A stretch of 64,000 bases of DNA, taken from positions 15,717 to 79,716 of the forward strand of contig JBBQRX010000007.1 in the NCBI GenBank assembly GCA_038214375.1, written 5' to 3'. The position numbers were made by a program, and so were the translations under genes. The notes below the pieces were generated by a model. That model made no database searches and was not told the origin of the DNA. It worked only from the letters and a program-made list of their open reading frames with translations. This DNA is from Candidatus Limnocylindrales bacterium (lineage in GTDB: Bacteria; Chloroflexota; Limnocylindria; Limnocylindrales; CSP1-4). Every line of letters starts with the position of its first letter. Positions within the stretch are counted from its first letter, which is position 1. Positions 1 to 58,736 of this stretch are shown one piece after another.

Positions 1-948
1 TCGGGTGGCTCGTCGCTCATCTCCGCGGCCATGCAGGCACTTCCGGTCGGGGTGCCGAAGCTGCTCGTCTCCACCATGGCGTCGGGTGACACGCGGCCGT
101 ATGTCGGGACCGCGGACATCGCGATGATGTACTCGGTGGTGGACATCGCCGGGATCAACGGCATCTCGGAGAAGATCCTGTCCAACGCGGCCGCCGGGAT
201 CGCCGGCATGGCCCTCGCGTCCGCGTCGTTCACGTCAGGGATCGCGGCGAAGCCCCTGATCGGCGCGACGATGTTCGGGGTGACAACACCCTGCGTGACC
301 GCCGCCCGCGAGCTTCTCGAGGAGCGCGGATACGAGGTCCTGGTCTTCCATGCCACCGGCTCCGGCGGCCGTTCGATGGAGGCCCTCATGAAGGCGGGCT
401 TCATCACCGGCTCGCTGGACATCACGACGACCGAGCTCGCGGACGAGCTCGTGGGCGGCGTCCTGTCCGCCGGCCCCGACCGACTGGAGATGGCCGGCTC
501 CCTCGGCATCCCGCAGGTGGTCTCGCTGGGTGCCCTCGACATGGTCAACTTCGGGCCGAAGGAGACGGTTCCCGCGAAGTTCGCGGACCGCAATCTGTAT
601 GTCCACAACGCGACGGTGACGCTGATGCGCACGACCGAGGAGGAGTGCGCCGAGCTCGGCCGGACGATCGCCCGGAAGCTCAATGCCGCGACCGGTCCGC
701 TGACCGTGTTCATCCCGCTCGGCGGGGTCTCGATGATCGATGTGCCGGGCGCCCCGTTCTTCGATGCCGCGGCCGACGCAGCGCTGATCCGCGAGCTGAA
801 GGCCGGTCTCCGGCCCGACGTCGAGGTGGTCGAGATGGCCGCCTCGATCAACGACCCGGCATTCTCGCGCGCGATGGCCGAGCGCATGGATGCGCTCTAC
901 CAGGCCTGGTCCGCACCGAAGCTGGTCACCACAGGAGGACGCGCATGA
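1..948 (+). CDS. UPF0261 family protein (Tm-1-like N-terminal ATP-binding domain homolog); 5' end truncated by window edge
   Basis: ORF 31..948 is in frame from base 1; product is Gly/Ala-rich with a UPF0261-like sequence ([37 protein letters not shown]); stop overlaps the ATG of the next gene (946). Confidence 0.8.
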
Positions 949-1784
949 ACGGGCAGGTAGCGCTGGCGCGGCTGCGCCGAACGATCGCCGAGGGTGGCGT
1001 GATCATGGGCGCGGGCGCCGGGACGGGCCTCTCGGCGAAGTGCGCCGAGGCCGGCGGAGCCGACCTGATCATCATCTACAACTCGGGCCGCTACCGGATG
1101 GCCGGTCGTGGCTCGCTCGCAGGCTGCATGCCCTATGGCGACGCGAACGCGATCGTCGTGGAGATGGCCGGCGAAGTGCTCCCGATCGTGCGCGAGACGC
1201 CGGTCCTGGCCGGGGTCTGCGGAACGGATCCGTTCCGCCTGATGCCGGTCTTCCTCGAGGAGATCAAGCGGATCGGCTTCTCCGGGGTCCAGAACTTCCC
1301 GACGGTCGGGCTGTGCGACGGCCAGTTCCGCCAGAACCTCGAGGAGACCGGGATGGGCTTCGGGCTCGAGGTGGAGATGATCCGGGCGGCCCACGAGGCC
1401 GGTCTCCTCTGCACGCCCTACGTCTTCGACACGGACCAGGCCCGGGCCATGGCCGAGGCCGGCGCCGACGTCGTCGTCGCCCACATGGGCCTGACCACCA
1501 AAGGGCAGATCGGCGCCACCACGGCCCTGACCCTCGAGGCCGCGGCGGTCCGGGTCCAGGAGATCCGCAACGCGGCCGTCGCGATCAAGCCCGACATCAT
1601 CGTGCTCTGCCACGGCGGCCCGATCGCGGAGCCCGACGATGCGCAGTACGTCATCGACCACACGACGGGCGTCGCCGGCTTCTTCGGCGCGTCGAGCATG
1701 GAGCGGCTTCCGACGGAGGTGGCGATCACGGAGAACATGAAGCGCTTCAAGCGGATCACCCGACCGATGGCGGTCGCCGGCTGA
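946..1784 (+). CDS. phosphoenolpyruvate hydrolase-like TIM-barrel protein (Tm-1-like C-terminal domain homolog)
   Basis: ATG at 946 overlaps the upstream stop (ATGA-style coupling); product [60 protein letters not shown]... is typical of the PEP-hydrolase-like fold that partners UPF0261. Confidence 0.8.
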
Positions 1785-1832
1785 CGAGGTCGCCCGGGGC
1801 GGCGACAGACCCCGCAGGAGGAGTCGAACACA

Positions 1833-3605
1833 GTGGCACTCAAGGAAGAAGTCCTGGGCCAGTTCCTCGGGGACGAGAAGTTCCCGGTGACGTGGACGTC
1901 GGACACCGAGAAGCTGCTCTTCTGGGTCTACGACGACCTGCATTGCCCGCACCCGCTGAGCCCGATGTACGAGGACATCGGCGGCTGGTGGCTGTCGTGT
2001 GACCACATGTTCCGCCGATTCGGCACGCCGTTCGCGACGGACTGGATCTACAAGAACGTCAACGGCTACCTGTACACGGCGGCAATCCCGGCCGAGGCCG
2101 GCCTGAAGGTCGACACGCAGGAGTACAACTACTCGACCAGCCCGGTCGTGCCGGAGGATCCCGACTACGCGGCGAAGATCGGGACGTACCTCGGCGCCGT
2201 CCTGCCGACCTACGGCCTCGAGTTCGTGGACTGGTGGCGCGACCGCCTGGTCCCCGAGATGGACCGCAACTTCGCGTACCTCGAGGGGATGCTCGACAAG
2301 CAGGATGAGCTGAACCTCATGCAGCTTGCCTGCCTCTTCGAGGACGCGATCGACGTCCACGATCGCCACTGGAAGATCCACTGGATGCTCAACTTCGCCC
2401 AACTGTCCGCGACGCTCAACCTGCGGGCAGTCATGGAGAAGACGCACGGCGCAATCAACGAGCAGCTCCTGGGGCGCCTCCAGAACTCCGCGAAGGACCG
2501 CAACTGGGATTCGATCGAAGCACTCTGGAAGATGAAGGAGGAGGCGAAGTCCGACCCGGATCTCGCCGCCATCTTCAAGGCCGATACGGCCGGCGAGATC
2601 ATCGTTGCGCTCAAGGCGAGCGAGCGCGGACGGCGCTTCATCGAGGAGCGCGTCGCACCCTACCAGAAGGAGTACGGCTGGCACGCCGTCTGGAGCCACG
2701 AGTTCATCTTCCCGAACGTGGTCGAAGTCATGGAGCCGGTCATCGAGCTCGTCCGCGGCTACATCGAGACCAACTACGACTACCCGAAGACGATCGCCGT
2801 CCTCGCCGCCGACATCAAGGCCGCGGCGACCGAGATCCTCAAAGGCCTCGAGGGCGAGGCGCTCGAGGAGATGCGGGCGGCCAACGAGATCAACCTGCGG
2901 ATGGCCCCGCTCACGCCGGACCACCACTTCTACATCGACCAGGGCGCCAACGCCCACGTCCGCCAGGTCCTCCTCGCGATCGGCCGCAAGCTCGTCGCGA
3001 CGGGCGCACTCGACGCACCCGACGACGTCGTCTACTTCCGGTACAACGAGCTGCGCGTCTTCATGGGCAACCCGGCCGGCATGGATGGCCGGGCGATCGT
3101 GGCGACGGCAAAGGCCGCCCGCGAGAAGGCCTACACGTTCCGGCCGAAGGAATGGGTCGGGACCGTCACGGCGACACAGCTGGCGTTCCCGTACCTGAAC
3201 CTCTGGGGCTTCCCGGACAAGTTCTATCGCAAGGAGTCCACCGTCGCCGGTCAGATCAACGGGATCGGCGGCTCTCCGGGCGTCGTCGAAGGAATTGCTC
3301 GGGTCGTCCTGCACGAGGACCAGTTCGACGACGTCCGCGCGGGCGACATCCTCGTCTGCCAGATGACGAACCCGGCCTGGGTCGTCCTCTTCACCAAGAT
3401 CGTCGGTCTCGTGACCGACGCGGGCGGGACCGTCTCCCACCCGGCCGTCCTCTCCCGCGAGTTCGGCATCCCGGCGGTCGTCGGGACGTCCGTGGCCACC
3501 GAGCAGATCAAGAACGGCGACCGAGTCCGCATCAACGGCACCACGGGCCTCGTCGAGATCCTGAGCACGGCGCCAGCCCGCACGCTCGTCGGCGTTGGGT
3601 CCTGA
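1833..3605 (+). CDS. PEP-utilizing enzyme family protein, phenylphosphate synthase subunit A-like (C-terminal phosphohistidine swivel domain)
   Basis: GTG start at 1833; N-terminal motif LFWVYDDLHCPHPLSP resembles the FWxxDxLHxPxP motif of PpsA/PEP-synthase-like enzymes (from memory); C-terminal mobile domain ...MTNPAWVVLFTKIVGLVTDAGGTVSHPAVLSREFGIPAVVG with catalytic His. Confidence 0.8.
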   Translation: MALKEEVLGQFLGDEKFPVTWTSDTEKLLFWVYDDLHCPHPLSPMYEDIGGWWLSCDHMFRRFGTPFATDWIYKNVNGYLYTAAIPAEAGLKVDTQEYNYSTSPVVPEDPDYAAKIGTYLGAVLPTYGLEFVDWWRDRLVPEMDRNFAYLEGMLDKQDELNLMQLACLFEDAIDVHDRHWKIHWMLNFAQLSATLNLRAVMEKTHGAINEQLLGRLQNSAKDRNWDSIEALWKMKEEAKSDPDLAAIFKADTAGEIIVALKASERGRRFIEERVAPYQKEYGWHAVWSHEFIFPNVVEVMEPVIELVRGYIETNYDYPKTIAVLAADIKAAATEILKGLEGEALEEMRAANEINLRMAPLTPDHHFYIDQGANAHVRQVLLAIGRKLVATGALDAPDDVVYFRYNELRVFMGNPAGMDGRAIVATAKAAREKAYTFRPKEWVGTVTATQLAFPYLNLWGFPDKFYRKESTVAGQINGIGGSPGVVEGIARVVLHEDQFDDVRAGDILVCQMTNPAWVVLFTKIVGLVTDAGGTVSHPAVLSREFGIPAVVGTSVATEQIKNGDRVRINGTTGLVEILSTAPARTLVGVGS

Positions 3606-3614
3606 CCCGGCCAC

Positions 3615-4391
3615 ATGTCCCACGGCGCCGCGATCTCGCGCAGCGTCCTGAGCGATCAGGTCAAGGATCGTCTGCTCCGGGCGATCCTTGACGGTCGCTA
3701 CCCGCCGGGCGCCCGGATCGTCGAGACCCGGGTGGCCCGGGAGCTCGGAACGAGCCAGGCGCCCGTCCGGGAGGCGTTGCGCGACCTCGAGGCGCTCGGG
3801 GTCGTGGAATCCACCGCCTTCCGGGGAGCCCGCGTCCGCCGCCCGTCGGCGGACGAGCTCCTCGAAGGCTTCACCATCCGGGCCGAGCTCGAGTCGCTCG
3901 GCGCGCGCCTGGCGATCGACCATCTGACCGACGAGGACCTGTGCGTCCTTGCCGGGTATGTCGACGAGATGCGACGGGCGGCCGATGACGGGGACCTCCA
4001 CGCGGAGGCCACTGCCGACGCCGCCTTCCACGGCCGGATCGTCGAGCTCGCCGGGAACGCCACCCTGGAGCGGGTCTGGAGGACGCTCGAGCCCTTCTCC
4101 CGCACCTACATCACGATGGTCGTCCCGGGGGTCGACCGGCGTCGCATCGCGGAGCTGCACACCCCGGTCCTCGCCGCACTTCGCCTCCGGGATCCGATCG
4201 CGGTAGACGCGGTCATCCACGAGCATTTCGCCGAGACCGCCGCGATGCTGGCCCGCCTGTGGTCGACCGATGGCTCGGCGGCGCGAGACGGCTCGGCGGC
4301 GACCAGCAGCCCCCCGACGAGCGACGATCCCCGGCTGGGAACGCGTGCTGGGCAGCCGATCCCCGCAACGACCCACGAAAGGACGAGATGA
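3615..4391 (+). CDS. GntR family transcriptional regulator (FadR/FCD subfamily)
   Basis: N-terminal wHTH (RIVETRVARELGTSQAPVREALRDLEALGVV) and C-terminal FCD-like helical domain; same strand as flanking catabolic genes. Confidence 0.85.
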   Translation: MSHGAAISRSVLSDQVKDRLLRAILDGRYPPGARIVETRVARELGTSQAPVREALRDLEALGVVESTAFRGARVRRPSADELLEGFTIRAELESLGARLAIDHLTDEDLCVLAGYVDEMRRAADDGDLHAEATADAAFHGRIVELAGNATLERVWRTLEPFSRTYITMVVPGVDRRRIAELHTPVLAALRLRDPIAVDAVIHEHFAETAAMLARLWSTDGSAARDGSAATSSPPTSDDPRLGTRAGQPIPATTHERTR

Positions 4392-5292: not shown

Positions 5293-6153
5293 ATGCACAC
5301 GTTCTCCTACGCACGGCCGGAGGCGCTGGCCGAGGCGGAGGCCATCCTCGCGACACACGGGCCGGATGCCCGCGTCCTTGCCGGGGGCACCGATCTCGTC
5401 ATCCGGCTGCGCGATGGCACGGCCCGGCCGGGCATCGTGGTCGACATCAAGCGGATCCCCGAGCTGCGTCCCTCGATCCGGGAGGAGGCCGGCGTCCTCG
5501 TGATCAGCGCCGGAACGGTCATGACCGACATCGCTGCCGACGAGCGCGTGCGCCGCTGGTTCCCGGCTTTGGCGGAGGGGGCGGCGGTGGTCGGATCCGT
5601 CCAGATCAGGAACCGGGCCACGCTTGCTGGCAACGTGTGCAACGCCTCGCCCGCCGCCGACACGGCCCCCGCGCTCCTCGTGTACGGCGCCCGGGTGGTC
5701 GCCCAGGGGCAGGGCGGGACCCGACGCATCCCGATCGACGCGTTCTTCGTGCGGTCCGGCGTCACGACGCTCGCCCGCGGTGAGCTCGTCACGGCGATCG
5801 AGCTGAGGCTTCCGGCCGGCCCGATGGGCGCGGTCCACGTCCGGCGGACCCGCCGGCGCGGGCACGACCTCGCCTCGGTGACACTCTGCTGCGGCGTGGA
5901 CGGGTCCGGCGTCACGCGGCTTGCGTACGGCAGCGTTGGGCCGCGGCCCGTGCTTTTCGTCGATGAGAGCGGCGTGCTCGCCGACCCGGCCGCCCCGGAC
6001 GAGGCCAGGGCTCCCATCTTCGAGCGGATGTTCGCCGACGCCAGCCCGTCCCCGCGCTCCCTGCGGGCGAGCCCCGAATACCGCCTGGCAATGCTCCGCG
6101 TCCTGGGGACGCGGGCGCTGCGGACCGCGATCGAACGGCTGGCCCTCGCATGA
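5293..6153 (+). CDS. xanthine dehydrogenase family FAD-binding subunit (CoxM/CutM-like medium subunit)
   Basis: FAD-binding molybdopterin-dehydrogenase motifs (AGGTDLV..., IRNRATLAGNVCNASPAAD); precedes the 2Fe-2S and Mo subunits. Confidence 0.9.
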   Translation: MHTFSYARPEALAEAEAILATHGPDARVLAGGTDLVIRLRDGTARPGIVVDIKRIPELRPSIREEAGVLVISAGTVMTDIAADERVRRWFPALAEGAAVVGSVQIRNRATLAGNVCNASPAADTAPALLVYGARVVAQGQGGTRRIPIDAFFVRSGVTTLARGELVTAIELRLPAGPMGAVHVRRTRRRGHDLASVTLCCGVDGSGVTRLAYGSVGPRPVLFVDESGVLADPAAPDEARAPIFERMFADASPSPRSLRASPEYRLAMLRVLGTRALRTAIERLALA

Positions 6154-6635
6154 GCACCCGGGTCGAGCCGATCGCGATCGAGATGACGGTCAACGGGCGG
6201 TTACGGGCGCTCGAGGTGGCCCCCCACCACACGCTGCTCGACATGCTGCGCGACGACCTGGGACTGACCGGCGCGAAGGAGTGCTGCCTGGTCGGCGAGT
6301 GCGGGGCGTGCACGGTGATCGTCGACGGGCGCACGGTCGACTCCTGCCTGGTGCTCGCCGTCGAGGCCGATGGCGCGGCGATCACGACCGTCGAGGGCCT
6401 CGCGGCGGACGGCGTTCTGAGCCCGCTCCAGCAGGCATTCCTCGACAGGGGAGCCGTGCAGTGTGGCTTCTGCATCCCCGGTCAGCTCGTCGCCGCCCAG
6501 GCGCTCCTCGCGGGCAACCCGCACCCATCCGTGGCGGAGATCCAGGAGGGCCTGGCGGGCAACCTGTGCCGCTGCGGCTGCTACGGGCAGATCACCGACG
6601 CGGTCCTCGCGACCGCCGAGGCGGACGTGCGATGA
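6150..6635 (+). CDS. (2Fe-2S)-binding small subunit of xanthine dehydrogenase family enzyme
   Basis: Two Cys clusters (CCLVGECGACTV and CGFCIPGQ ... CRCGCY); ATG 6150 overlaps upstream stop. Confidence 0.9.
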   Translation: MSTRVEPIAIEMTVNGRLRALEVAPHHTLLDMLRDDLGLTGAKECCLVGECGACTVIVDGRTVDSCLVLAVEADGAAITTVEGLAADGVLSPLQQAFLDRGAVQCGFCIPGQLVAAQALLAGNPHPSVAEIQEGLAGNLCRCGCYGQITDAVLATAEADVR

Positions 6636-8878
6636 GCACGCATCGGATCGGCGACTCTCCCAACCGCGTCGGCGGAGTCGGCCGGGTGACCGGCAGCCAG
6701 CAGTACGCGGCGGACATCCGGCTTGCGGACGTCCTCGAGGCCAGGCTCGTCACGCTCGACTGCGCGCGGGCCCGGATCATCTCGATCGATACGATGGCCG
6801 CCGAGCTGGTCCCGGGCGTGCGCCTCGTCATGACTGCAGCCGACCTGCCGCAGCCGGTGCCGCGCTTCGGTCCGCAGTTTGCGGATCGCCCGGTCATCGC
6901 GGTCGGCGAGACGAAGTACCACGGCGAGCCGGTCGCGATCGTCGCCGCCGACTCGAAGGATGCGGCGGAGGAGGCCGCGGGTCTCGTCCGGGTCGAGTAC
7001 GAGGAGCTGCCCGCGGTCTTCACGCTGGCGGCGGCGCTCGACCCGGCCGCCCCGCTGGTCCAGGACCCGGCGCTTCGCCGCAACGACCGGCTCGCATCCA
7101 CGAACGTCCTCCGCGAGCACCCCATCGGCTGGGGCGACGTGGACGCCGCGACGGCAGACGTTGTCGTCGAGAACACGTACACCTTCCCGATGGTCACCCA
7201 TTTCGCGATCGAGCCGCACACATTCATGGCCGCGCCCGACGGCGACGGGATCGCCGTCTGGAGCACGATCCAGCACCCCAACTGGCTCCAGAAGGTGATC
7301 GCGAACATCCTCGGGCTCCCCCTTTCGAAGGTGCGCGTCCTCGCGCCGGATCCCGGGGGTGGGTTTGGCGGCAAGCAGCACGCCAAGCTCGAGCCGCTCG
7401 TCGCGTTCGCGGCCCTGCGGGCCGGGCGCCCCGTGCGTCTCGTCCTGACCCTCGAGCAGACGTTCCAGGCGGTGCGCCGGGCGTCGTGCGAGGTCCGCGT
7501 CCGGACCGGGGTCAACCGCGACGGCGGGCTGGTCTTCGAGGACATCGAGGCCGACTACCTCATCGGCGCCTACGCGGACATCGCGGACCGCGTCGTCGGC
7601 AAGGGCAGCTACCCGGCCGCCGGCCCGTACAACGTTCCGGCCGTTCGGATCATGGCCCGCAGCGTGCTGTCCCACACGGTGCCGTCCACCGCCTTCCGCG
7701 GCTTCGGCAACCCGCAGGTCAACTGGGCAGTGGAGTCGAACCTCGACGATGCGGCGCGCGCGATCGGGATGGATCGCCTCGCGATCCGCCTGCGCAATCT
7801 CGCGAGAAAGGGCGACGCGTTCATCCCGTTCGACACGCCGGCCGACGGCGACTGGGAGCAGACCGTCCGACGGGCGGCGGAGCTCATCGGCTGGGATGCG
7901 CCGCTGCCGCCCGGGCACGGGCGGGGGATCGCCATCGGGATCAAGTCCGGCCCCACCACGGGCCTCTCGTATTCGACCGTCCGGCTCCTCGGCGACGGGA
8001 GCGTGATCGTCTTCGCCGGCACGTCGGACATGGGCCAGGGCGCCCGGACGGTCTTCGCGCAGATCGCGGCCCAGGAGCTCGGCGCGCCGCTCGACTGGGT
8101 CACGGTCGTCATGGGCGACACGGCGATCGTCCCGTACGACCAGCAGACATCGGCGAGCCGCTCCACGGTCCTGATGGGCAACTCGGTGCTGCAGGCGTGC
8201 CGCTCGATCCAGGCGCAGCTGCGCGCGATGGCCGCCCGTCTTCACGGCCTCGACGCGTCGCAGGTGAGCGTGGACAGCGGAGTCGTCCAACTCCCCGGCC
8301 GCGAGCTCTCCGTGCTCGAGGTGCTCGAGCCGGGCCTCGGCCCTCTCGGTGGCGAGCTGACCGGCAACGGCGAGGTCCGCAAGGATGCCGAGCCCGATCA
8401 CCCGCTCAGCGGCAGCGCGGCGTTCTTCGAGTTCAACTGCACGGCCGTCGAGGCGGCGGTGGACGAGGAGACGGGCGACATCGTCATCGCGAAGCACGTG
8501 ACGGTCTCCGACGTGGGGAAGGCTCTCAACCCGCTCCAGGTGGCGATGCAGGACGAGGGTGCCGCCATCCAGGGCCTGGGCCATACGCTCATGGAGCAGT
8601 ACGTCTTCGACGAGACGGGCCGAATCCGCAATCTGGGCGCGATCGACTACCGGATCCCGACCAGCATGGACCTGCCGCTCGAGCTGCGCAGCGCCATCGT
8701 CGAGAACGAGGACGGCCCCGGGCCGTACGGCTCGAAGGGGATGAGCGAGGGCGCGCTGCTGTGCGTGGCGTCCGCCGTCGGGGCGGCCGTCCGGGATGCC
8801 ACCGGGGTCGCGATCCGGGACCTGCCGCTGACGCCGGAACGGGTCTGGCGCGCCCTCCGCGATCGGCCGACGCCATGA
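6632..8878 (+). CDS. xanthine dehydrogenase family molybdopterin-binding large subunit
   Basis: ATG 6632 overlaps small-subunit stop; GGGFGGK and AFRGFGNPQ motifs typical of XDH/aldehyde-oxidoreductase Mo subunits; no form-I CODH AYXCSFR loop; the N-terminal 5921..6631 part of the long ORF is antisense-style artefact. Confidence 0.9.
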   Translation: MSTHRIGDSPNRVGGVGRVTGSQQYAADIRLADVLEARLVTLDCARARIISIDTMAAELVPGVRLVMTAADLPQPVPRFGPQFADRPVIAVGETKYHGEPVAIVAADSKDAAEEAAGLVRVEYEELPAVFTLAAALDPAAPLVQDPALRRNDRLASTNVLREHPIGWGDVDAATADVVVENTYTFPMVTHFAIEPHTFMAAPDGDGIAVWSTIQHPNWLQKVIANILGLPLSKVRVLAPDPGGGFGGKQHAKLEPLVAFAALRAGRPVRLVLTLEQTFQAVRRASCEVRVRTGVNRDGGLVFEDIEADYLIGAYADIADRVVGKGSYPAAGPYNVPAVRIMARSVLSHTVPSTAFRGFGNPQVNWAVESNLDDAARAIGMDRLAIRLRNLARKGDAFIPFDTPADGDWEQTVRRAAELIGWDAPLPPGHGRGIAIGIKSGPTTGLSYSTVRLLGDGSVIVFAGTSDMGQGARTVFAQIAAQELGAPLDWVTVVMGDTAIVPYDQQTSASRSTVLMGNSVLQACRSIQAQLRAMAARLHGLDASQVSVDSGVVQLPGRELSVLEVLEPGLGPLGGELTGNGEVRKDAEPDHPLSGSAAFFEFNCTAVEAAVDEETGDIVIAKHVTVSDVGKALNPLQVAMQDEGAAIQGLGHTLMEQYVFDETGRIRNLGAIDYRIPTSMDLPLELRSAIVENEDGPGPYGSKGMSEGALLCVASAVGAAVRDATGVAIRDLPLTPERVWRALRDRPTP

Positions 8879-9789
8879 GCCACGAGGAGGGCGCGGGAAT
8901 GGCCAGGCCGTCCGGGATCGGACCGATCGGCGAGCTGCCGCCCGCACAGGTCGTGAAGGCCGCGAGCCTCGTCCGCGACGGCCGAATGGTCTCGCTCGCG
9001 GCGGTGCGCTACCCCGGCATGCCCCTCTTCCCCGGGCACCCGCCGTTCCAGGTGCTCAACTACCGGACCCCGCGCGGGATTCGCGTGACCGGCGCGAAAC
9101 CGTGGGGGCCGGTCAACGACGCGGGCCTCGGCTACATGGCCGAGTACGTGATGGCGACCTCGCACTCCGGCGCGCACATGGACGCGCTCGCTCACATGAC
9201 CGTGGGCGACGACATGCACTGGTACGGCGGCGGGAACGCGGACGAGCACCTGACGGATTTCGGCCCGACGCACCTCGACGCGTCGCAGATGCCCCCGTTC
9301 TTCACCCGGGGCGTCCTGCTGGACGTTGCCGGGCACCGCGGGGTCGACTGCCTCCCCGAGGGCTCGCCGATCAATGCCGACGAGATGGAAGCGGTCTGCC
9401 TCGCGCAGGGCGTGTCCGTGGGGCCGTGGGACGTCGTCCTGGTCCGGACCGGCTACATGGGCCTCTGGCCCGACGTCGAGCGGATGGCCGCCCACAAGAC
9501 CGCCGGGCCGGATCTCTCGGCGGCCCGCTGGCTGCTGGAGCGCGGCGTCGTCGCGACCGGCAGCGACACGGAGACCTACGAGGTCCAGCCGACTCCCGAC
9601 CCGGGACCTACCGGCAACCCCCAGCCGGTCCACACGCTGCTGCTCATCCAGAACGCCATCTACCTCATGGAGAGCCTCGACCTCGAGGAGCTGGCGCGCG
9701 TGCGCGCCTACGAGTTCCTCTTCGTCGCCCTCCCCGTCAAGATCCGCGGCGCCACCGGGTCGATGGTCGATCCCGTCGCCGTCCTCTGA
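8875..9789 (+). CDS. cyclase family protein (kynurenine formamidase-like metal-dependent hydrolase)
   Basis: ATG 8875 overlaps large-subunit stop (ATGA); HSGAHMDALAHM and GSDTETYE motifs of the putative cyclase fold. Confidence 0.85.
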   Translation: MSHEEGAGMARPSGIGPIGELPPAQVVKAASLVRDGRMVSLAAVRYPGMPLFPGHPPFQVLNYRTPRGIRVTGAKPWGPVNDAGLGYMAEYVMATSHSGAHMDALAHMTVGDDMHWYGGGNADEHLTDFGPTHLDASQMPPFFTRGVLLDVAGHRGVDCLPEGSPINADEMEAVCLAQGVSVGPWDVVLVRTGYMGLWPDVERMAAHKTAGPDLSAARWLLERGVVATGSDTETYEVQPTPDPGPTGNPQPVHTLLLIQNAIYLMESLDLEELARVRAYEFLFVALPVKIRGATGSMVDPVAVL

Positions 9790-9815
9790 AGGAGCTCGTC
9801 AGCGTGCCCGCGACC

Positions 9816-10859
9816 ATGGAGGCGCTCGTCGTTCTCGAGCCGAACCGGCTCGAGATCCAGGAAGTTCCCGTCCCGACGGCCGGCCCGAACGAGGTTCTGG
9901 CCCGCGTGCGCGCCGTCTCCATCTGCGGGACCGATGCGCACATCCTGCGCGGCGACTACCCGGGCTTCTGGCCCCCCGCGTTCCCGTTCATCCCGGGCCA
10001 CGAGTGGGCCGGCGAGATCGCCGCGCTCGGGCCCGGCGCGGAGCTGTTCGGATGGGCGGTCGGCGACCGCGTCGCGGGCACCTCGCACGACGCGTGCGGC
10101 GTCTGCCAGAAGTGCGTCGAGGGCCGCTACAACCTGTGCGAGAACTATGGGCGGCCGGGACTCCACAAGCAGTACGGCCACAGCGTCCAGGGCGCCGACG
10201 CGACGTACGTCGTGCAGGGCGTCAAGACGATCTTCCCGCTCCCCGACGCGATCTCGTTCGACGAGGGCGCCGTCATCGACCCGGCCTCCATCGCCCTCCA
10301 CGTCGCGAATCGCGGCAATATCGCTCCCGGCGACACGGTCGCGATCACGGGCGCCGGCGCCATCGGGCTGCTCGGCGGGGACGCGGCACGCATCCGGGGA
10401 GCCGGTCGCGTCATCCTCGTCGGCCGCGGAGGTCGCCTTCTGAAGGCGGCGGCGATGGGCTTCGAGACCGTGGACACGTCCGCCGGCGATCCGGTCCCCA
10501 TAGTGCGCGAGATGACCGGGGGCCTCGGCGTCGACGTCGTCCTCGAGTGCGCCGGTGTTCCCGTCGCCGTGCAGTGGGCGCTCGGCATGCTTCGGCGCGG
10601 CGGCCGGTGTGCCGCCGTCGGGATCCCGACCGAGGGCGTCGAGATCGCCATGCAGCGGCTGGTCCTCGATGAGCTGGAGCTGGTCGGGTCCCGTGCCTCC
10701 GCGGGCGAGATGCGGCGCGTGATGCCGCTCGTCGAGCAGGGCCGGATGCGGGTTCGCGAGGTCATGACCCATCGCTTCGCGCTCGCCGACTATGCGCAGG
10801 CGATCGCCACCTTCAACGACCCGACGAGCGGCGCGATCAAGATCATCGTCGCGCCGTGA
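9816..10859 (+). CDS. zinc-dependent alcohol dehydrogenase (MDR family)
   Basis: ICGTDAHIL, GHEWAGEI, CGVCQKCVEGRYNLC (structural Zn) and GAGAIGLL Rossmann motifs; AAGGAG RBS at 9789-9794; alternative GTG start at 9804. Confidence 0.85.
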   Translation: MEALVVLEPNRLEIQEVPVPTAGPNEVLARVRAVSICGTDAHILRGDYPGFWPPAFPFIPGHEWAGEIAALGPGAELFGWAVGDRVAGTSHDACGVCQKCVEGRYNLCENYGRPGLHKQYGHSVQGADATYVVQGVKTIFPLPDAISFDEGAVIDPASIALHVANRGNIAPGDTVAITGAGAIGLLGGDAARIRGAGRVILVGRGGRLLKAAAMGFETVDTSAGDPVPIVREMTGGLGVDVVLECAGVPVAVQWALGMLRRGGRCAAVGIPTEGVEIAMQRLVLDELELVGSRASAGEMRRVMPLVEQGRMRVREVMTHRFALADYAQAIATFNDPTSGAIKIIVAP

Positions 10860-10914
10860 CCTGCGCCCGTGCCGCGCGGAGCGGCCGGTCGGCTCGGCGC
10901 CCCAGGAGAGCCCC

Positions 10915-13089
10915 GTGACCTACGTCTTCGACTTCGACCACCGCCACGACCTGCCGTTCGACGAGGTCAAGCGACTCGTGGGCGGCAAGGCCGCGAGCCT
11001 CGCGGTGATGGCGGTCGACCTCGGCCTGCCGGTTCCACCGGCCTTCACGATCACGACGACGGCCTGCAACGAGTACCTGGCGAACGGCTGGCCGGACGGG
11101 CTGGACGCCGATCTTCGCGAGCACATGGCGCGGATCGAGCGGCTCGTCGGCCGGCGCTTCGGCGGCCCGGAGGATCCGCTCCTGGTCAGCGTCCGGTCCG
11201 GCGCGCCGGTCTCGATGCCGGGCATGATGGACACGATCCTCAACCTGGGGCTGAACGGCGGGACGACCGGCGGGCTCGCGGCCGCGTCGGGCAGCGAGGC
11301 ATTCGCGGCGAACTGCCGCGCGAGGTTCGAGGCGACGTTCCGCGACATCGTGGGCGTCGACGACGTGCCCGAGGATCCGTGGGCCCAGCTGCGGGCAGCG
11401 ATCGAGGCCGTCTTCCGCTCCTGGAACAGCGACCGGGCCCGCACGTACCGCGAGCGGGAGGGGATCGCCGACGACCTGGGCACGGCGGTGACCGTGCAGG
11501 CGATGGTCTTCGGCAACCGCAGCGTCGACTCCGGGACGGGCGTCCTGTTCACGCGGAACCCGGCCACCGGCGAACCCGCCCTCTACGGCGACGTCCTGTT
11601 CAACGCCCAGGGCGAGGACGTCGTGGCCGGGACGCACCGGACCGAGCCGATCGCCATCCTCGACGAGCGCATGCCCGCTGTCGGGCGCGAGCTCCACGAG
11701 TACGCGCTCCGTCTCGAGCGCCACCACCGGGACCTGTGTGATATCGAGTTCACGATCGAGCACGGCAGGCTCTGGATGCTGCAGTGCCGTGTCGGCAAGC
11801 GAAGCCCGCAGGCCGCGCTCCGGATCGCGGTCGACATGGCCCGCGACGCGGACTTCCCCCTGGAGCGGGTGGAGGCCGTGCGCAGGGTCGCCGGTCTCCT
11901 TGCGAGCCCACCGATGATCGCGACCGCGCGGGCCGGCAACGAACCCGTCCTCGCGACGGGCCTGCCGGCGTCGCCGGGAATCGCCTGCGGCGAGATCGCG
12001 ACCACGCCCGATGCCGCGATCGCCGTCGCCGAGGCCGGCCGGCGGGCGATCCTCGTCCGTGCCGAGACGTCCCCGGACGACGTCCATGGGATGGCCCGGT
12101 CGGCCGGGATCCTCACCTCCTGCGGCGGCCTTGCGAGCCACGCCGCGGTCGTTGCGCGCGGCTGGGGAATCCCCGCGGTGGTGGGTGCAGCCGCGGTCCA
12201 CGTCTCGGGCGACGGCGTCACGATCGGCGGGCGAACGTTCCGCGCGGGCGACACGATCTCGATCGACGGGGCTACCGGCGAGATCTTCGCCGGGGCGATC
12301 GCCGGAGCACGGGTGGTCGTCCCCGAGGTGGCGACGCTGCTGGCGTGGGCGGCCGAGCTCGGGATCCCGATCGGGGACGCCGATGCGCCCGCCGGTGCCG
12401 CCCCGGGCGCGGCTGCCCCGGGCGCGGCTGCCACGGCCGGACCGCCGGCGTCATCCGGCGGCGCGGCGCCGGCAACCGCAGATGATGTCCTGCGCGCGCT
12501 GATCGTGAAGGGCTACGCACTGCCCGAGAGCCTGGCGACGGCGCTCTCATCGACCGCCGCGGAGATGGCGGCTGCGCTGGACTGCCTCGTCGCCGACGGC
12601 CTCGCCGAGAAGGCCGCCGGCTCGTTTCGGCTCACGGTCGGCGGGAAGGCCGCCGGACGGGAGCGGATCGCGGCCGACACCGAGCGCTGGGGAGTCGCCA
12701 ATGCGGCGGCCGCGCTCGATGCGTTCGTGATCCTCGACACGCGCATGAAGCAGACCGCCACTGCGTGGCAGATGCGCGAGGTGGACGGCACCGCGACGTT
12801 CAACGATCACGCGGATGCGGCCTACGACGCGAAGGTGCTCCGAGACCTCGACTCGCTGCACGCGGACGCGTCCGCGTGGCTCCGCCCGTTGGTGCCGCAC
12901 CTCCCCCGGCTCGCGTCGTACGTCGAGCGCCTGGACCGCGCAGCGGCCGCGGCTCGGGGCGGGGACGGCCGCTTCGTCGCGTCACCCCGTGTCGACAGCT
13001 ACCACGGCGCCTGGTTCGAGCTGCACGAGGACTTGATCCTGCTCGCGGGCCGCAGCCGGGCCGACGAGGTCGCCGCCGGGCGCGCCTGA
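10915..13089 (+). CDS. PPDK-like dikinase: PEP/pyruvate-binding ATP-grasp N-domain plus phosphohistidine swivel domain, with a novel C-terminal region instead of the catalytic TIM barrel
   Basis: GTG 10915 preceded by AGGAGAG; the N-terminal 340 aa align by eye to the pyruvate phosphate dikinase N-terminus (GGKAASLAVM, RSGAPVSMPGMMDTILNLGLN, TRNPATGE); central TSCGGLASHAAVVARGWGIPAVVG His domain; residues after about 500 are Ala/Pro linker then an unrelated about 230 aa region. Confidence 0.8.
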   Translation: MTYVFDFDHRHDLPFDEVKRLVGGKAASLAVMAVDLGLPVPPAFTITTTACNEYLANGWPDGLDADLREHMARIERLVGRRFGGPEDPLLVSVRSGAPVSMPGMMDTILNLGLNGGTTGGLAAASGSEAFAANCRARFEATFRDIVGVDDVPEDPWAQLRAAIEAVFRSWNSDRARTYREREGIADDLGTAVTVQAMVFGNRSVDSGTGVLFTRNPATGEPALYGDVLFNAQGEDVVAGTHRTEPIAILDERMPAVGRELHEYALRLERHHRDLCDIEFTIEHGRLWMLQCRVGKRSPQAALRIAVDMARDADFPLERVEAVRRVAGLLASPPMIATARAGNEPVLATGLPASPGIACGEIATTPDAAIAVAEAGRRAILVRAETSPDDVHGMARSAGILTSCGGLASHAAVVARGWGIPAVVGAAAVHVSGDGVTIGGRTFRAGDTISIDGATGEIFAGAIAGARVVVPEVATLLAWAAELGIPIGDADAPAGAAPGAAAPGAAATAGPPASSGGAAPATADDVLRALIVKGYALPESLATALSSTAAEMAAALDCLVADGLAEKAAGSFRLTVGGKAAGRERIAADTERWGVANAAAALDAFVILDTRMKQTATAWQMREVDGTATFNDHADAAYDAKVLRDLDSLHADASAWLRPLVPHLPRLASYVERLDRAAAAARGGDGRFVASPRVDSYHGAWFELHEDLILLAGRSRADEVAAGRA

Positions 13090-15216: not shown

Positions 15217-16491
15217 GTGATGACCCCCCCCGCTGACCGAACCACTCGGAGCATCCGCACCGCCAGGCTCCTCGCGGTCGGCAGCGAGCTGACCACCGGC
15301 GAGACGCGCGATACGAACGGCGGCGAGCTTGCCCGCGCGCTGGCCGGAGCGGGCGTGGATGTGCGCCAGATCGTGGCCCTGCCCGACGACCTCACCGCGG
15401 TCACGGCTGCGTTTCAGGACGCGCTCGCGACCGTCGACCTGGTCGTCTCGACCGGCGGCCTGGGCCCGACTCCGGATGACCTCACCCGGGAGGCACTCGG
15501 CGCCGCGGTCGGCGAGGTGCCCGTCATCGACCCCGTGCTGGAGCGGTGGCTTCGCCGCCTGTTCGCGAAACGCGGCGTGCGGCTCGCGGAGGTCAACCTG
15601 AAGCAGGCCTGGCGGATCCCGTCCGCGAGGGCGATCCACAACCCGAACGGAACGGCCCCCGGCTGGTGGGTCGACCGGCCGGACGGGCGGGTCGCGGTCC
15701 TCCTGCCCGGCCCGCCGCGCGAGATGCGGGCGATGTGGTCGGACTGGGTTCTGCCGCGCCTCCGCGAACGCGGCCTGGGCGACGGTCGCGTGGTGCGCAC
15801 GCTCCGCACGTACGGCATCGGCGAATCGCAGGTCGCCGAGCTGCTGGGCGACGAGATGCTCCGGCGGGCGAACCCGGTCGTCGCGACCTACGCGCGCGCG
15901 GACTGGCTCGACGTCCGGGTCAGCGCCGTGGACGAGCAGGCCGGCGGCGGGACCTCGGCAGGGACCGCCGATCGGGTTCCGGTCCGCACGGCCGATGCGA
16001 TCCTCGAGGAGACCCTCGCAGGACTCCGGGCGACCCTCGCGGATCACGTCCGGGCCGAGGGCGAGACGACGTGGGCGGACCTCGTCGGCGCGGCAGCGGA
16101 CGATGCCGGGGTGCGCCTTGCCATCGTCGAGGCGGGCACCGGCGGCGCACTCGGCGCGATGCTCGCGGACATCCCCGCGCTGGAGCGAGCGACGTCTGCG
16201 GGGCCGCGTGTCGCCCCGGACCCGTCCGACTGGCCGGTCGAGGAGGCTGCGGCCGAGTCGGCGCGGGGCGCCGGGGTCGCGGTCGGCATCGCCCTGGTCG
16301 CCCGGACGGCCCCCGGGGAGGGGACACGCCTCCGGGTCGCCGTCGTCGTCGCCGGCGCCGGCGTCTCGCGCGTGCTCGAGCTCCGACTGTTTCAGCACGG
16401 AGCGCACGGGCGCCTGCGGGCCGCTGTGGCCGCCGCCGCGTTCGCGATCGAGATCCTGGGGACGCTCGAGCCGGCGGCGCCTGGGCGCTGA
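15217..16491 (+). CDS. cinA: CinA family protein (competence/damage-inducible protein A; MocF/NMN-amidohydrolase domains)
   Basis: N-terminal MoCF-biosynthesis-like domain (LAVGSELTTGETRDTNG ... VVSTGGLGPTPDDLTRE) and C-terminal CinA domain. Confidence 0.85.
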   Translation: MMTPPADRTTRSIRTARLLAVGSELTTGETRDTNGGELARALAGAGVDVRQIVALPDDLTAVTAAFQDALATVDLVVSTGGLGPTPDDLTREALGAAVGEVPVIDPVLERWLRRLFAKRGVRLAEVNLKQAWRIPSARAIHNPNGTAPGWWVDRPDGRVAVLLPGPPREMRAMWSDWVLPRLRERGLGDGRVVRTLRTYGIGESQVAELLGDEMLRRANPVVATYARADWLDVRVSAVDEQAGGGTSAGTADRVPVRTADAILEETLAGLRATLADHVRAEGETTWADLVGAAADDAGVRLAIVEAGTGGALGAMLADIPALERATSAGPRVAPDPSDWPVEEAAAESARGAGVAVGIALVARTAPGEGTRLRVAVVVAGAGVSRVLELRLFQHGAHGRLRAAVAAAAFAIEILGTLEPAAPGR

Positions 16492-16562
16492 GGGTCGTCT
16501 CTCGCGTCAGGGCGGCCGGTCACGTCCGGGCTGGGCCGCCGTTCGCCCGGCTCGTCTGTCCC

Positions 16563-17537
16563 CTACGGCATCTCCGGGGGGTGCATTCCCTCCGTCGGCT
16601 CCGGGCGGCGCCACGATGCCGCGATCGCGACGGCGAGGATCGAGACCACGATGACGAGCGAGGGGATCGGGTCGATCTTGATCCCAAGGTTGACAACGGT
16701 CAATTTCACGCCGACGAACACGAGGATCACCGCGAGTCCCAGCTTGAGGTAGCGGAAGCGGTTCTTCAGGTCGGCGAGGAGGAAGTAGAGAGCCCGCAGG
16801 CCCAGGATCGCGAACGCGTTCGACGTGTAAACGATGAACGGGTCGCGGGTGACCGCGAAGATCGCCGGGATCGAGTCGACCGCGAAGATCAGGTCGGTGA
16901 CCTCGACCGAGATCAGCACCAGCAGGAGCGGCGTCGCCAGGCGCTTCGCCTTGACCCTGGTGAAGAACCGCTGGCCGTCGTAGGCGTCGGTGAACGGGAG
17001 GCTGCGTCGAGCGAAGCGCACGATCGGGTTCTGGCTGGGGTCCTTCTCCGGCTTGCCGTGGGAAAGGCCCATCCGGATGCCGGTCAGGATCAGGAACGCC
17101 CCGAAGACGTAGAGGATCCACTGGTACGCTTCGATGAGCGCGGCGCCGGCCACGATCATCACGAGCCGCATCGCGAGCGCGCCGACGACGCCCCAGAAGA
17201 GCACCCGGTGCTGGTACTGCGCCGGCACCGCGAACGCCCCGAAGATCAGGGTGAAGACGAAGACATTGTCGACCGAGAGGCTCTTCTCGATCAGGTAGCC
17301 GGTGAAGTACTCGACGCCCCTGGTCGAGCCGAGCCAGGCGAAGATGAGCACGCCGAAGGCGACGCCGAGGCTGATCCAGAAGGCGCTGAAGATCGCCGCC
17401 TCCCGGACCTGCACGACGTGCGCCTTTCGATGGAACACGAACAGGTCCAGGAAGAGCAGGAACGCGATGAGGGCCAGGAAGGCGAGCCAGTAGATCGGCT
17501 CGATCGTCGGGGTCATGGGGCTGATCGGGTCTGCCAT
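16563..17537 (-). CDS. terC: TerC family integral membrane protein
   Basis: Multi-pass membrane protein with TerC signatures (SLSVDNVFVF, ILGLRALYF); start chosen at Met 6 of the ORF. Confidence 0.85.
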   Translation of the reverse strand: MADPISPMTPTIEPIYWLAFLALIAFLLFLDLFVFHRKAHVVQVREAAIFSAFWISLGVAFGVLIFAWLGSTRGVEYFTGYLIEKSLSVDNVFVFTLIFGAFAVPAQYQHRVLFWGVVGALAMRLVMIVAGAALIEAYQWILYVFGAFLILTGIRMGLSHGKPEKDPSQNPIVRFARRSLPFTDAYDGQRFFTRVKAKRLATPLLLVLISVEVTDLIFAVDSIPAIFAVTRDPFIVYTSNAFAILGLRALYFLLADLKNRFRYLKLGLAVILVFVGVKLTVVNLGIKIDPIPSLVIVVSILAVAIAASWRRPEPTEGMHPPEMP

Positions 17538-54664: not shown

Positions 54665-54733
54665 CTCCGGGTGCTCGGCCCAAGGGCCGCGAGTCTGGAC
54701 GTGGGAACGACGACAGCGCGATCGGGCATGCGC

Positions 54734-56362: not shown

Positions 56363-56513
56363 CGGGACGCATGCTCCTTCGGAAAGCCGACTGACCGGAT
56401 CAGCGTGGAGGAGATGCACCGGCAGGCCAATGCAGCAGGGCGCAAGCCTTCCTCAAGTTCCGGTCAAGCGGCGCACCGGTGCCACCCGGGCCGGCGATCG
56501 TTGGGACCGCGGT

Positions 56514-58646: not shown

Positions 58647-58736
58647 GTAGGTGACCCCCGCTGGGTGGGCGGATGACGACGGGCAGCTCACGATAGAACG
58701 TGGAACCCTGGCCCGCTCTCGGGACTCGTGCGTTCC

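Follow-up and report, generated by a model that had tools for sequence, protein, structure and literature searches.

An open reading frame (ORF) at 10915-13089 of a 64,000-nucleotide stretch of Candidatus Limnocylindrales DNA (Chloroflexota; the whole stretch that was analysed is called the window below) unites in one natural polypeptide two proteins that in most bacteria are the products of neighbouring genes. Its N-terminal part is, by homology, a truncated pyruvate, phosphate dikinase (PPDK) of the type characterised in Mycobacterium tuberculosis as VadK (Rv1127c), and its C-terminal part resembles Rv1126c, the operonic partner of VadK. The best explanation, in our view, is that the VadK-type PPDK and the Rv1126c-type module together make up the ATP-handling subunit of a three-module swivel-His dikinase. 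We put the probability of this explanation as a whole at about 0.55.

Integrity of the fused gene

The ORF comprises 724 stop-free codons in translation on the forward strand. Third-position GC is 0.85-0.97 in a single frame throughout 10901-13000, the interdomain linker included; the overall GC content of the window is 72%. The GTG start that yields 724 residues agrees with a public gene call (P0400) and with the full-length alignment to another public protein (P0124). An alternative start, the ATG at 10792, would give a 765-residue version overlapping the upstream dehydrogenase gene. P0400 is identical to the window protein over all 724 residues, and at least 119 further clusters (defined at 90% identity) contain proteins of 684-750 residues that are 72-84% identical to it, with 100% query coverage in all but one. 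These clusters stem from NCBI, JGI, ENA and Logan and, where named at all, are called ‘pyruvate, orthophosphate dikinase’. One relative (73% identity) is annotated from a metagenome-assembled genome (MAG) of Chloroflexota, and the relatives of the C-terminal domain that share 68% identity come from Candidatus Limnocylindrales MAGs.

Since the identical protein and the full-length clusters come from independent sources, the fusion is not an assembly or frameshift artefact. The proposal that the ORF is a sequencing or assembly join, which the earlier note on this DNA had named as a possible refutation of its reading, or a decaying pseudogene, is thus effectively refuted and its probability is next to nil: besides the matching public proteins, the frame is unbroken, the codon bias is uniform and the catalytic motifs are intact. 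What might be quoted in its favour is that some stand-alone matches from long-read MAGs are frameshift artefacts, though these err in the opposite direction. Two proteins, P0006 and P0026, the top stand-alone matches of the C-terminal domain, were considered as a true split form and rejected, as their loci come from frameshift-ridden long-read MAGs. In the loci L001 (4373-6001) and L002 (249-6801), both syntenic with the window, frameshifts fragment the PPDK part and neighbouring genes, mimicking a split pair.

N-terminal part: a truncated PPDK

The N-terminal 480 or so residues belong, judging by family models, to a known kind of protein, the curated short PPDK family. As the earlier note had read for approximately the first 500 residues, a PPDK nucleotide-binding (ATP-grasp) domain is followed by a phosphohistidine swivel domain, both recognised by Pfam (Table 1) and both with intact motifs. 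The ATP-grasp domain contains LLVSVRSGAPVSMPGMMDT at residues 89-107 and DIEFTIEHGRLWMLQCRVGKRS at residues 276-297. The swivel domain contains His409 (codon CAC, 12139-12141) within GGLASHAAVVARG, aligned with the catalytic His of PPDK. Residues 18-481 align with residues 14-529 of Clostridium symbiosum PPDK (1ggo), and there, at position 529 of 873, the alignment ends. Its last part covers a remnant of the linker helix that in PPDK normally leads to the phosphoenolpyruvate (PEP)/pyruvate barrel; the mycobacterial split VadK genes stop shortly past the equivalent point. No Pfam family matched C-terminally of about residue 465 even at E≤1, hence there is no PEP-utilizers_C domain, and the absence of the barrel, as claimed from the letters alone, holds.

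The protein passes the NCBIfam model NF004531 (PRK05878, 534 positions, named ‘pyruvate, phosphate dikinase’) with 507 bits against a cutoff of 456, the match covering residues 19-465, and misses the full-length PPDK equivalog TIGR01828 (EC 2.7.9.1; 522 bits versus a cutoff of 843.45). Barrel-less proteins combining PPDK_N with PEP-utilizers, for which a search had been suggested, do therefore exist, namely this curated family and VadK. Rv1127c, formerly ‘PpdK’, received the latter name in 2026; it is described as a truncated PPDK with neither a pyruvate/PEP domain nor PPDK flux (Pascoe et al., EMBO Rep; PMC13400623). VadK autophosphorylates with ATP and Mg, and this activity is lost in the His422Ala variant (PMC13400623). 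The bacterium depends on it for virulence and for growing on propionate and cholesterol; PrpC and PrpD are co-immunoprecipitated with it, and it tunes flux through the methylcitrate cycle, the transcription of which is left unchanged by VadK loss in M. tuberculosis (PMC13400623).

Residues 19-462 of the window protein share 43-48% identity with the mycobacterial VadK-like genes. The His motif aligns with GGAASHAAVVSREL of M. decipiens VadK, which is also what the published H422A primer implies for M. tuberculosis (PMC13400623); therefore, His409 of the window protein corresponds to His422 of VadK. The motifs VSVRSG..SMPGMMDT, EFT[IV]E...LQxR and GGxxSHAA are kept in the window protein as well as in 14 fused and six split relatives, and in the window protein the ATP-binding Arg and the catalytic His are conserved. 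Given the VadK experiment, these conserved motifs suggest that His409 is phosphorylated in an ATP-dependent manner. Having no PEP/pyruvate site, the fused protein is predicted to be incapable of interconverting pyruvate and PEP. The earlier note had expected just this combination, a protein that can be phosphorylated on His and cannot make PEP, and the experiments on the homologous M. tuberculosis VadK agree with it (PMC13400623).

With canonical PPDK (C. symbiosum, PDB 1KBL/1DIK) the window protein shares the ATP-binding and catalytic His motifs and the linker helix. It differs in the missing TIM barrel and in the regulatory Thr, which precedes Ser-His in GG-x-T-S-H, is the target of the PPDK regulatory protein, and is replaced by Ala in the window protein (12133-12141). 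Ala is also found at this site in VadK of M. decipiens and M. szulgai, and Thr is kept in the split forms of M. branderi, Diaphorobacter, Solirubrobacteraceae and Rhodococcus. At one of the other loci with a fused gene (L090), a Kinase-PPPase (PF03618) gene is located 6 kb downstream, at 16041-16871.

Linker and C-terminal module

The two halves of the protein are joined by a low-complexity linker composed only of A, P, G, S, T and D. It includes the 15-bp tandem repeat pointed out earlier (12400-12436, 2.5 copies, 95% matches). The domain that follows is 205 residues long (520-724), somewhat shorter than the roughly 230 first estimated. Its AlphaFold2 model (mean predicted local distance difference test, pLDDT, of 95.4) consists of a helix-strand-helix-helix-hairpin arrangement followed by further helices. 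Using Foldseek, the first 62-81 residues could be superposed on the winged helices of MarR, IdeR, DtxR and MntR with a root mean square deviation (rmsd) of 1.1-2.9 Å, at E-values of only 0.07-0.5, in line with the winged-helix-like stretch proposed from the sequence in the earlier note. A profile search against PDB sequences and phmmer returned only weak, sub-significant winged-helix matches (MarR, IdeR, MntR). The remaining 150 or so residues are predicted to form a helical bundle with one β-hairpin. No significant fold match in PDB was detected with Foldseek, the best E-value being 0.07 for the whole domain and 0.27 for the bundle alone. Likewise, no Pfam or NCBIfam family covers the bundle, and the PADLOC defence models gave no match. 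Foldseek matches of the bundle to OspC/Vsp were judged generic (TM-score of about 0.4-0.5, rmsd of 6-10 Å), and a DinB-like or hemerythrin-like metal bundle, suggested by the pattern of His residues, found no support in any search.

To see which parts of the module are constrained, we consider conservation among 148 relatives filtered to less than 70% identity. For the recognition (third) helix of the winged helix, the net charge is -2 in the window protein and averages -1.55 in the relatives, with about 0.8 Lys+Arg; no segment of the module is less conserved. Residues conserved in at least 90% of the relatives all reside in the bundle, the start Met and two Gly excepted. The conserved set consists of K612, W618, Q619, N630, D631, H632, D634, Y637, D638, Y669, R672, P691, D694, S695, Y696, H697, W700, F701, E702, L703, H704, E705, R715, E718, G722 and R723; all of these except P691, L703 and G722 count as family-invariant. 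The family-invariant motifs WQ, NDHxD and, close to the C-terminus, DSYHxxWFELHE are all present in the window module. About 30 invariant polar residues of the bundle, three His among them, are kept down to about 30% identity.

As for a relationship with MarR itself, neither MarR nor MarR_2 of Pfam matched the window module at E≤1. Weak MarR matches occur in only 5 of 20 relatives, and one relative reaches 30.2 bits against the MarR_2 cutoff of 27. Common to the module and MarR, DtxR and MntR is the winged-helix fold within the first 60-80 residues or so, and DtxR and MntR also continue into a helical domain rich in His, Asp and Glu. In contrast to those regulators, the window module has an acidic recognition helix and a helical part of different topology, and no significant match to them was found by sequence or by whole-domain structure. 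The acidic, poorly conserved recognition helix and the confinement of the invariant polar residues to the bundle argue against DNA binding. The pattern of conservation in the bundle favours a catalytic, metal-binding or highly constrained protein-contact site, and a role that is purely structural becomes less likely in view of the constellation of invariant His, Asp, Glu and Arg. Overall, sequence and structure prediction indicate a swivel domain tethered by a flexible linker to a conserved module that does not look like a DNA-binding one.

The module as the operonic partner of VadK

A search with residues 520-724 identified at least 848 homologs, and an exhaustive profile search collected 1844 clusters at 50% identity (E≤1e-3). 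Among the best 150 of these 1844 clusters, 94 are stand-alone proteins of up to 245 residues, 17 are fusions of ATP-grasp, His domain and module (650 residues or longer), and five are other long fusions. In annotated plasmids, the stand-alone module goes under the name of ‘MarR family transcriptional regulator’ or ‘hypothetical protein’, and its gene adjoins that of a short ‘pyruvate, phosphate dikinase’. When species-representative genomes were scanned, 80 loci were obtained, mostly from Mycobacterium. In 66 of them a short PPDK gene ends just 5' of the gene for the module (about 200 residues), usually in another reading frame. Sequence comparison indicates that, across phyla, the module and VadK-like proteins are obligate companions.

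The M. szulgai copy led us to those of the species nearest to the M. tuberculosis complex; in M. decipiens, M. lacus, M. riyadhense and M. shinjukuense alike, the protein is 201 residues long. The order of genes at the M. decipiens locus is metE, DUF3556, DoxX, short PPDK, the 201-residue gene, WS_DGAT_C-like, hydrolases, 6PGD and G6PD. The M. tuberculosis order, as given in the expression table of the VadK study, is Rv1133c...Rv1127c, Rv1126c, Rv1125, ephC, bpoB, gnd2 (PMC13400623). The gene order being the same in both species, the M. decipiens protein (P0279) is the positional ortholog of Rv1126c. The window module aligns with P0279 end to end (200 of 205 residues, 35% identity, E=2e-30). 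Searching the genome collection with the core of the published rv1127c qRT-PCR (quantitative reverse transcription PCR) primer produced no match. By its homology to P0279, the C-terminal domain is an Rv1126c-type partner fused in cis. Of the earlier description of the domain as an unrelated replacement of the barrel, the lack of relationship to the barrel stands; the domain is not a one-off.

In the VadK study, VadK is regarded as a kinase of two domains, and Rv1126c is given no role (PMC13400623). Rv1126c appears there only in the Methods, as an ‘operonic partner’ the co-expression of which improves VadK solubility, and a 2 M NaCl wash was needed to part the co-purifying Rv1126c from VadK (PMC13400623). 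The window protein shares with VadK its two N-terminal domains, the absence of the barrel, the motif around the catalytic His and the NF004531 model; the C-terminal module is homologous over the full length to the positional ortholog of Rv1126c. What is a pair of proteins in a salt-resistant complex there is a single polypeptide here, connected by the Ala/Pro linker. The settings also differ: the host of the window gene is an environmental high-GC bacterium rather than a pathogen, and the gene lies in a molybdenum hydroxylase/hydrolase/dehydrogenase operon, with an HpeH-like gene in the same window, instead of next to prpDC. A literature search found no paper on this module, on these fusions or on a link between VadK-like and HpeH-like proteins.

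Several observations concern the surroundings of the mycobacterial pair. In M. decipiens (L085/L086), a DoxX gene on the opposite strand precedes the vadK-Rv1126c pair, and the interval from DUF3556 to vadK has no called prpR, prpD or prpC. Upstream of the vadK-type pair of M. szulgai there is a DUF222 gene. That vadK adjoins methylcitrate genes, a point emphasised for M. tuberculosis, may not hold generally.

Other architectures and neighbourhoods of the module

The module also occurs in other arrangements. In a Solirubrobacteraceae locus (L094), a 783-residue protein combines a divergent, HpeH-like N-terminal region and a swivel His domain with the module, and its gene is directly followed by a gene for a 479-residue short PPDK without the module. 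A 1256-residue protein (P0210), found on two contigs, holds Rph_4th, PEP-utilizers, PPDK_N, PEP-utilizers and the module in one chain; its gene is surrounded by Rieske dioxygenase, aldehyde dehydrogenase and P450 genes of a catabolic cluster. In P0194, the module is fused to a protein that already holds a substrate-binding region. Fusion partners are not restricted to swivel-His proteins. On plasmid pLW3 of Rhodococcus sp. LW-XY12 (L092, 5327-8886), the module forms the C-terminus of a 723-residue AMP-binding enzyme, followed by a 463-residue short PPDK. This operon also contains three acyl-CoA dehydrogenase genes, and a 412-residue PEP-utilizing enzyme is encoded upstream.

Unfused components are found together as well. 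A Diaphorobacter operon encodes a PEP-utilizing enzyme (572 residues), the module (206 residues) and a short PPDK (506 residues) between ring-hydroxylating dioxygenase genes. In Rhodococcus oxybenzonivorans, genes for PEP-utilizing and AMP-binding proteins, the module and a short PPDK cluster with biotin carboxylase genes (an hpe-like carboxylase). On plasmid pROB02 of Rhodococcus opacus B4 (L093, 3910-6291), the end of a 793-residue ‘PEP-utilizing enzyme’ matches part of the module (domain residues 92-198), its gene lying among phosphotransferase, tyrosine-protein phosphatase and ecdysteroid-kinase-family genes; this is possibly another variant of the module system, with a phosphatase of its own.

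For the fused form, neighbourhoods could be compared at five loci, the window included, each with at least 8 kb of flanking sequence. A gene for a protein with Rph_4th/PEP-utilizers domains lies within 8 kb in four of the five. In L088 it adjoins the fused gene and in L090 it is two genes away; the distance amounts to 5.5 kb in L091 and to 7.3 kb in the window. The Rph_4th+PEP-utilizers proteins near the L088, L090 and L091 fused genes are 24-34% identical to one another over most of their length; the window copy shows 25-29% identity to them over 330-460 residues, in pairwise blastp only.

Genes around the fusion

The window copy is a protein of 590 residues with a divergent substrate-binding region and a second swivel-His domain (GGTVSHPAV), and it has no ATP-grasp. 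It resembles the C-terminal 60% of RedH, PigC, RPH and PRK08296 (NCBIfam). Its N-terminal 470 residues have almost no tblastn matches in the other loci. The fused protein contains the only PPDK-type ATP-grasp of the window, and no HpeI-like gene is present there. Upstream of the gene for the 590-residue protein there is a gene of UPF0261, the family of MarK, for which ATP-dependent kinase activity on aromatic monomers has recently been demonstrated (PMC12624787). By analogy, the stretch at 31-4391 may hold two different small-aromatic kinase systems.

Immediately upstream of the fused gene there are five co-oriented genes (Table 1), the intergenic gaps of which are 21-56 nt or replaced by overlaps. 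The PF04199 ‘cyclase’ among them is of the kynurenine formamidase/isatin hydrolase type. The same upstream gene order is found in the relatives L001 and L002, and the five genes probably form one operon with the fused gene. Downstream of it follow a convergent metallo-β-lactamase-fold gene and a short-chain dehydrogenase/reductase gene. No gene for citrate synthase/PrpC, PrpD, an HprK-like protein or Kinase-PPPase is present among the approximately 39 window genes scanned. Farther away, on the minus strand (52298-58691), two heavy-metal P-type ATPase genes flank a gene for a DsbD_2/HMA membrane protein, in what looks like an ordinary metal-resistance cluster unrelated to the fusion.

Table 1. 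Coordinates of the fused gene, its parts and neighbouring features in the window
Feature	Position	Strand	Basis or remark
Whole ORF: VadK-type truncated PPDK + putative Rv1126c-type module	10915-13089	+	724 residues + stop
Shine-Dalgarno-like AGGAGA	10904-10909	+	5 nt 5' of GTG start, read from sequence
ATP-grasp nucleotide-binding domain, residues 1-340	10915-11934	+	Pfam PPDK_N 1.4e-45; aligns to C. symbiosum PPDK
Phosphohistidine swivel domain, residues 341-465	11935-12309	+	Pfam PEP-utilizers 3.3e-21, residues 377-455
PPDK linker-helix remnant, residues 466-488	12310-12378	+	PPDK alignment runs through 1ggo residue 529
Ala/Pro/Gly low-complexity linker, 33 residues (489-521), reaching 2 residues into module	12379-12471	+	Sequence composition
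Winged-helix subdomain of Rv1126c-type module, residues 520-574	12472-12636	+	AlphaFold2 pLDDT ~95
Helical-bundle subdomain of Rv1126c-type module, residues 575-724	12637-13086	+	Alignments, conservation; AlphaFold2 pLDDT 94.4 for bundle alone
590-residue HpeH/RPH-like ‘PEP-utilizing enzyme’, candidate acceptor-side partner	1833-3605	+	Pfam PEP-utilizers only, residues 502-572
UPF0261 protein gene, cut by window start	31-948		Upstream of HpeH-like gene
PEP_hydrolase-like TIM barrel	945-1784		PF09370, E=2e-131; directly upstream of HpeH-like gene
GntR/FCD regulator	3615-4391		After HpeH-like gene
Xanthine dehydrogenase (XDH)-family FAD, 2Fe-2S and molybdopterin subunits; PF04199 ‘cyclase’ hydrolase; Zn-dependent alcohol dehydrogenase	5293-10859	+	Pfam

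Relation to split and multidomain dikinases

HpeHI, CreHI, AcvAB and PpsAB are two-component dikinases, in which an RPH-like ‘H/A’ component comprising substrate and His domains lacks an ATP-grasp (Dexter et al., JBC 2025, PMC12167813). ATP is presented by a separate ATP-grasp protein, and the swivel His carries the β-phosphate to a phenolic substrate (PMC12167813). The window resembles these systems in that the dikinase is split, the RPH-like substrate+His component being matched by the 590-residue protein and by the Rph_4th proteins near other fused genes, and in that the genes of those systems are located in aromatic-catabolic clusters. The difference lies on the ATP side: the ATP-grasp subunit of HpeI and PpsB is PEP-synthase-like and has no His domain, whereas the window ATP-grasp is of the PPDK type, keeps a swivel His of its own and carries or accompanies the Rv1126c-type module, which is always there, on its own or as part of one of the partners. 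Phenylphosphate synthase (PpsABC) also has a small third protein, which stimulates its activity. RPH and PigC/RedH, too, combine an ATP-grasp and a swivel His with a non-barrel acceptor domain, and in them the phosphorylated His travels from the ATP site to a distant acceptor. In RPH, however, the domains follow in the order ATP-grasp, substrate domain, His domain, all within one chain with a single His domain and no Rv1126c-type module.

Possible mechanism and alternatives

According to the three-module explanation, ATP would bind to the ATP-grasp domain and His409 would become phosphorylated, a step shown for M. tuberculosis VadK and expected here from the motifs. The swivel domain, held on flexible tethers, would then leave the ATP site and engage the Rv1126c-type module. 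The module would occupy the place of the PEP/pyruvate barrel of PPDK and act as a docking or transfer station for the phosphohistidine rather than as a DNA-binding regulator. From there, as fusions and neighbourhood suggest, phosphate would pass to the acceptor side, most likely to the HpeH/RPH-like protein encoded at 1833-3605. This protein would then phosphorylate a small molecule handled by the co-transcribed molybdenum hydroxylase, PF04199 hydrolase and Zn-dependent alcohol dehydrogenase; the phosphorylated group would probably be a hydroxyl or enol of an aromatic or N-heteroaromatic compound. Such a system would be a three-module relative of HpeHI, CreHI and PpsAB. We favour it because of the HpeH-like fusion in L094, the all-in-one chain of P0210, the Diaphorobacter operon, the Rph_4th gene near four of the five fused loci and the presence of a sole PPDK-type ATP-grasp in the window. 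Fusions and neighbourhood together lead us to infer that the pair works with an HpeH-like acceptor-side protein in phosphorylating a small molecule. Within this scheme, several roles are conceivable for the module: that of a docking adaptor, that of a regulatory element, or that of the place at which His409 gives up its phosphate (to water, a metabolite or the second swivel His). The earlier note had guessed that phosphate is handed to a PpsA-like or an HprK-like protein nearby. The PpsA-like partner gains comparative support from gene fusions and the recurrent neighbourhood, with the hand-off as such being a proposal; the HprK-like one has no counterpart among the window genes.

A number of points weigh against this explanation. 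The HpeH-like gene is 7.3 kb from the fused gene, behind a GntR gene and another operon; one of the five fused loci (L089) has no HpeH-like gene within 8 kb, and only 9 of the 80 mycobacterial-type loci have an Rph_4th/PEP-utilizers gene within 5 kb. The ATP-grasp subunits of the known two-component dikinases have no His domain of their own, and a need for two swivel domains is left unexplained. Experimental support is confined to M. tuberculosis VadK and does not extend to the fused proteins or to Rv1126c, the link to which goes through the positional ortholog in M. decipiens and is strong but indirect. Finally, the authors of the VadK study favour a protein-regulatory role, based on the co-immunoprecipitation of PrpC and PrpD (PMC13400623).

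One alternative is a self-contained dikinase, in which the bundle itself is the acceptor-substrate site that replaced the barrel and no HpeH-like protein is needed. His409, once phosphorylated, would pass its phosphate to a small molecule bound there, possibly via a metal site formed by the invariant His, Asp and Glu. The position of the module after the PPDK linker helix, where the barrel normally is, would be explained, as would the invariant polar residues persisting at low identity, which are typical of an active or metal site, and the pair standing alone at most mycobacterial loci and without a nearby HpeH-like gene in L089. We nevertheless consider this unlikely, if worth keeping in mind, as the module is also fused to proteins that have a substrate region (L094, P0194), to an AMP-binding enzyme (L092) and into the all-in-one P0210, and the 150-residue bundle, with no PDB analogue, gives no sign of a binding pocket. 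Quite unlikely, too, is a regulatory protein kinase of the sort proposed for VadK, which would sense ATP and bind or phosphorylate metabolic enzymes, the module recruiting the clients. The autophosphorylation of VadK, its association with PrpC and PrpD and its effect on methylcitrate-cycle flux all suit such a role, and so does a module that is fused to different enzymes yet always accompanies a VadK-like protein. However, there is no prpC or prpD near the window gene, the recurrent neighbours are components of small-molecule dikinases and catabolic enzymes, and no phosphorylated protein substrate has been reported even for M. tuberculosis.

The names given to stand-alone relatives in databases (‘MarR family transcriptional regulator’) would instead make the fusion a one-polypeptide transcription factor, with a MarR/DtxR-like DNA-binding domain switched by the phosphorylation state of the dikinase. 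The winged-helix fold is supported, and some relatives do reach the MarR_2 threshold. Yet a recognition helix that is net acidic throughout the family and the least conserved part, the lack of any MarR match in the window protein at E<1, a post-winged-helix part unlike the dimerisation domains of MarR or DtxR, and methylcitrate-cycle transcription that is indifferent to the loss of VadK in M. tuberculosis make this very improbable. A bolder version of the three-module explanation, speculative and in our opinion unlikely as a whole, is that the bundle constitutes a novel domain that is catalytic or accepts phosphate, possibly with the help of a metal (H632, H697 and H704 together with Asp/Glu). 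It would then belong to a three-module His-to-His relay, similar to the phosphotransferase system (PTS), that activates small molecules for catabolism.

Implications

The enzyme class of the N-terminal part, the short PPDK or VadK, is already known. Relative to the searchable literature, two suggestions drawn from sequence comparison are new. One is that VadK-like enzymes include the Rv1126c-type module as an integral part, which is widely conserved and has no structural assignment; the other is that VadK-like proteins and HpeH-like partners are components of a three-module dikinase system. Rv1126c has so far been used only as a solubility aid for VadK (PMC13400623). The fusion of a short PPDK to its usual neighbour suggests that the small protein is part of the enzyme, and natural fusions of this kind argue for the Rv1126c-type module being its integral third domain; the HpeH-like and AMP-binding fusions point the same way as the fusion in the window. 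On this view, VadK-like proteins would descend from parts of multi-component small-molecule dikinases, which are widespread in soil Actinomycetota, Chloroflexota and Pseudomonadota. The conserved bundle of about 150 residues has neither a Pfam family nor a structural analogue. Thousands of genes named ‘pyruvate, phosphate dikinase’ or ‘MarR family transcriptional regulator’ probably encode neither.

If the relay version were true, it would define an unrecognised class of three-module phosphotransfer systems, in which one swivel-His domain passes the phosphate of ATP on to a different one. VadK-Rv1126c would in that case be what is left of such a system, pared down and put to another use, and the missing acceptor of a validated tuberculosis virulence factor would be found in Rv1126c or reached through it.

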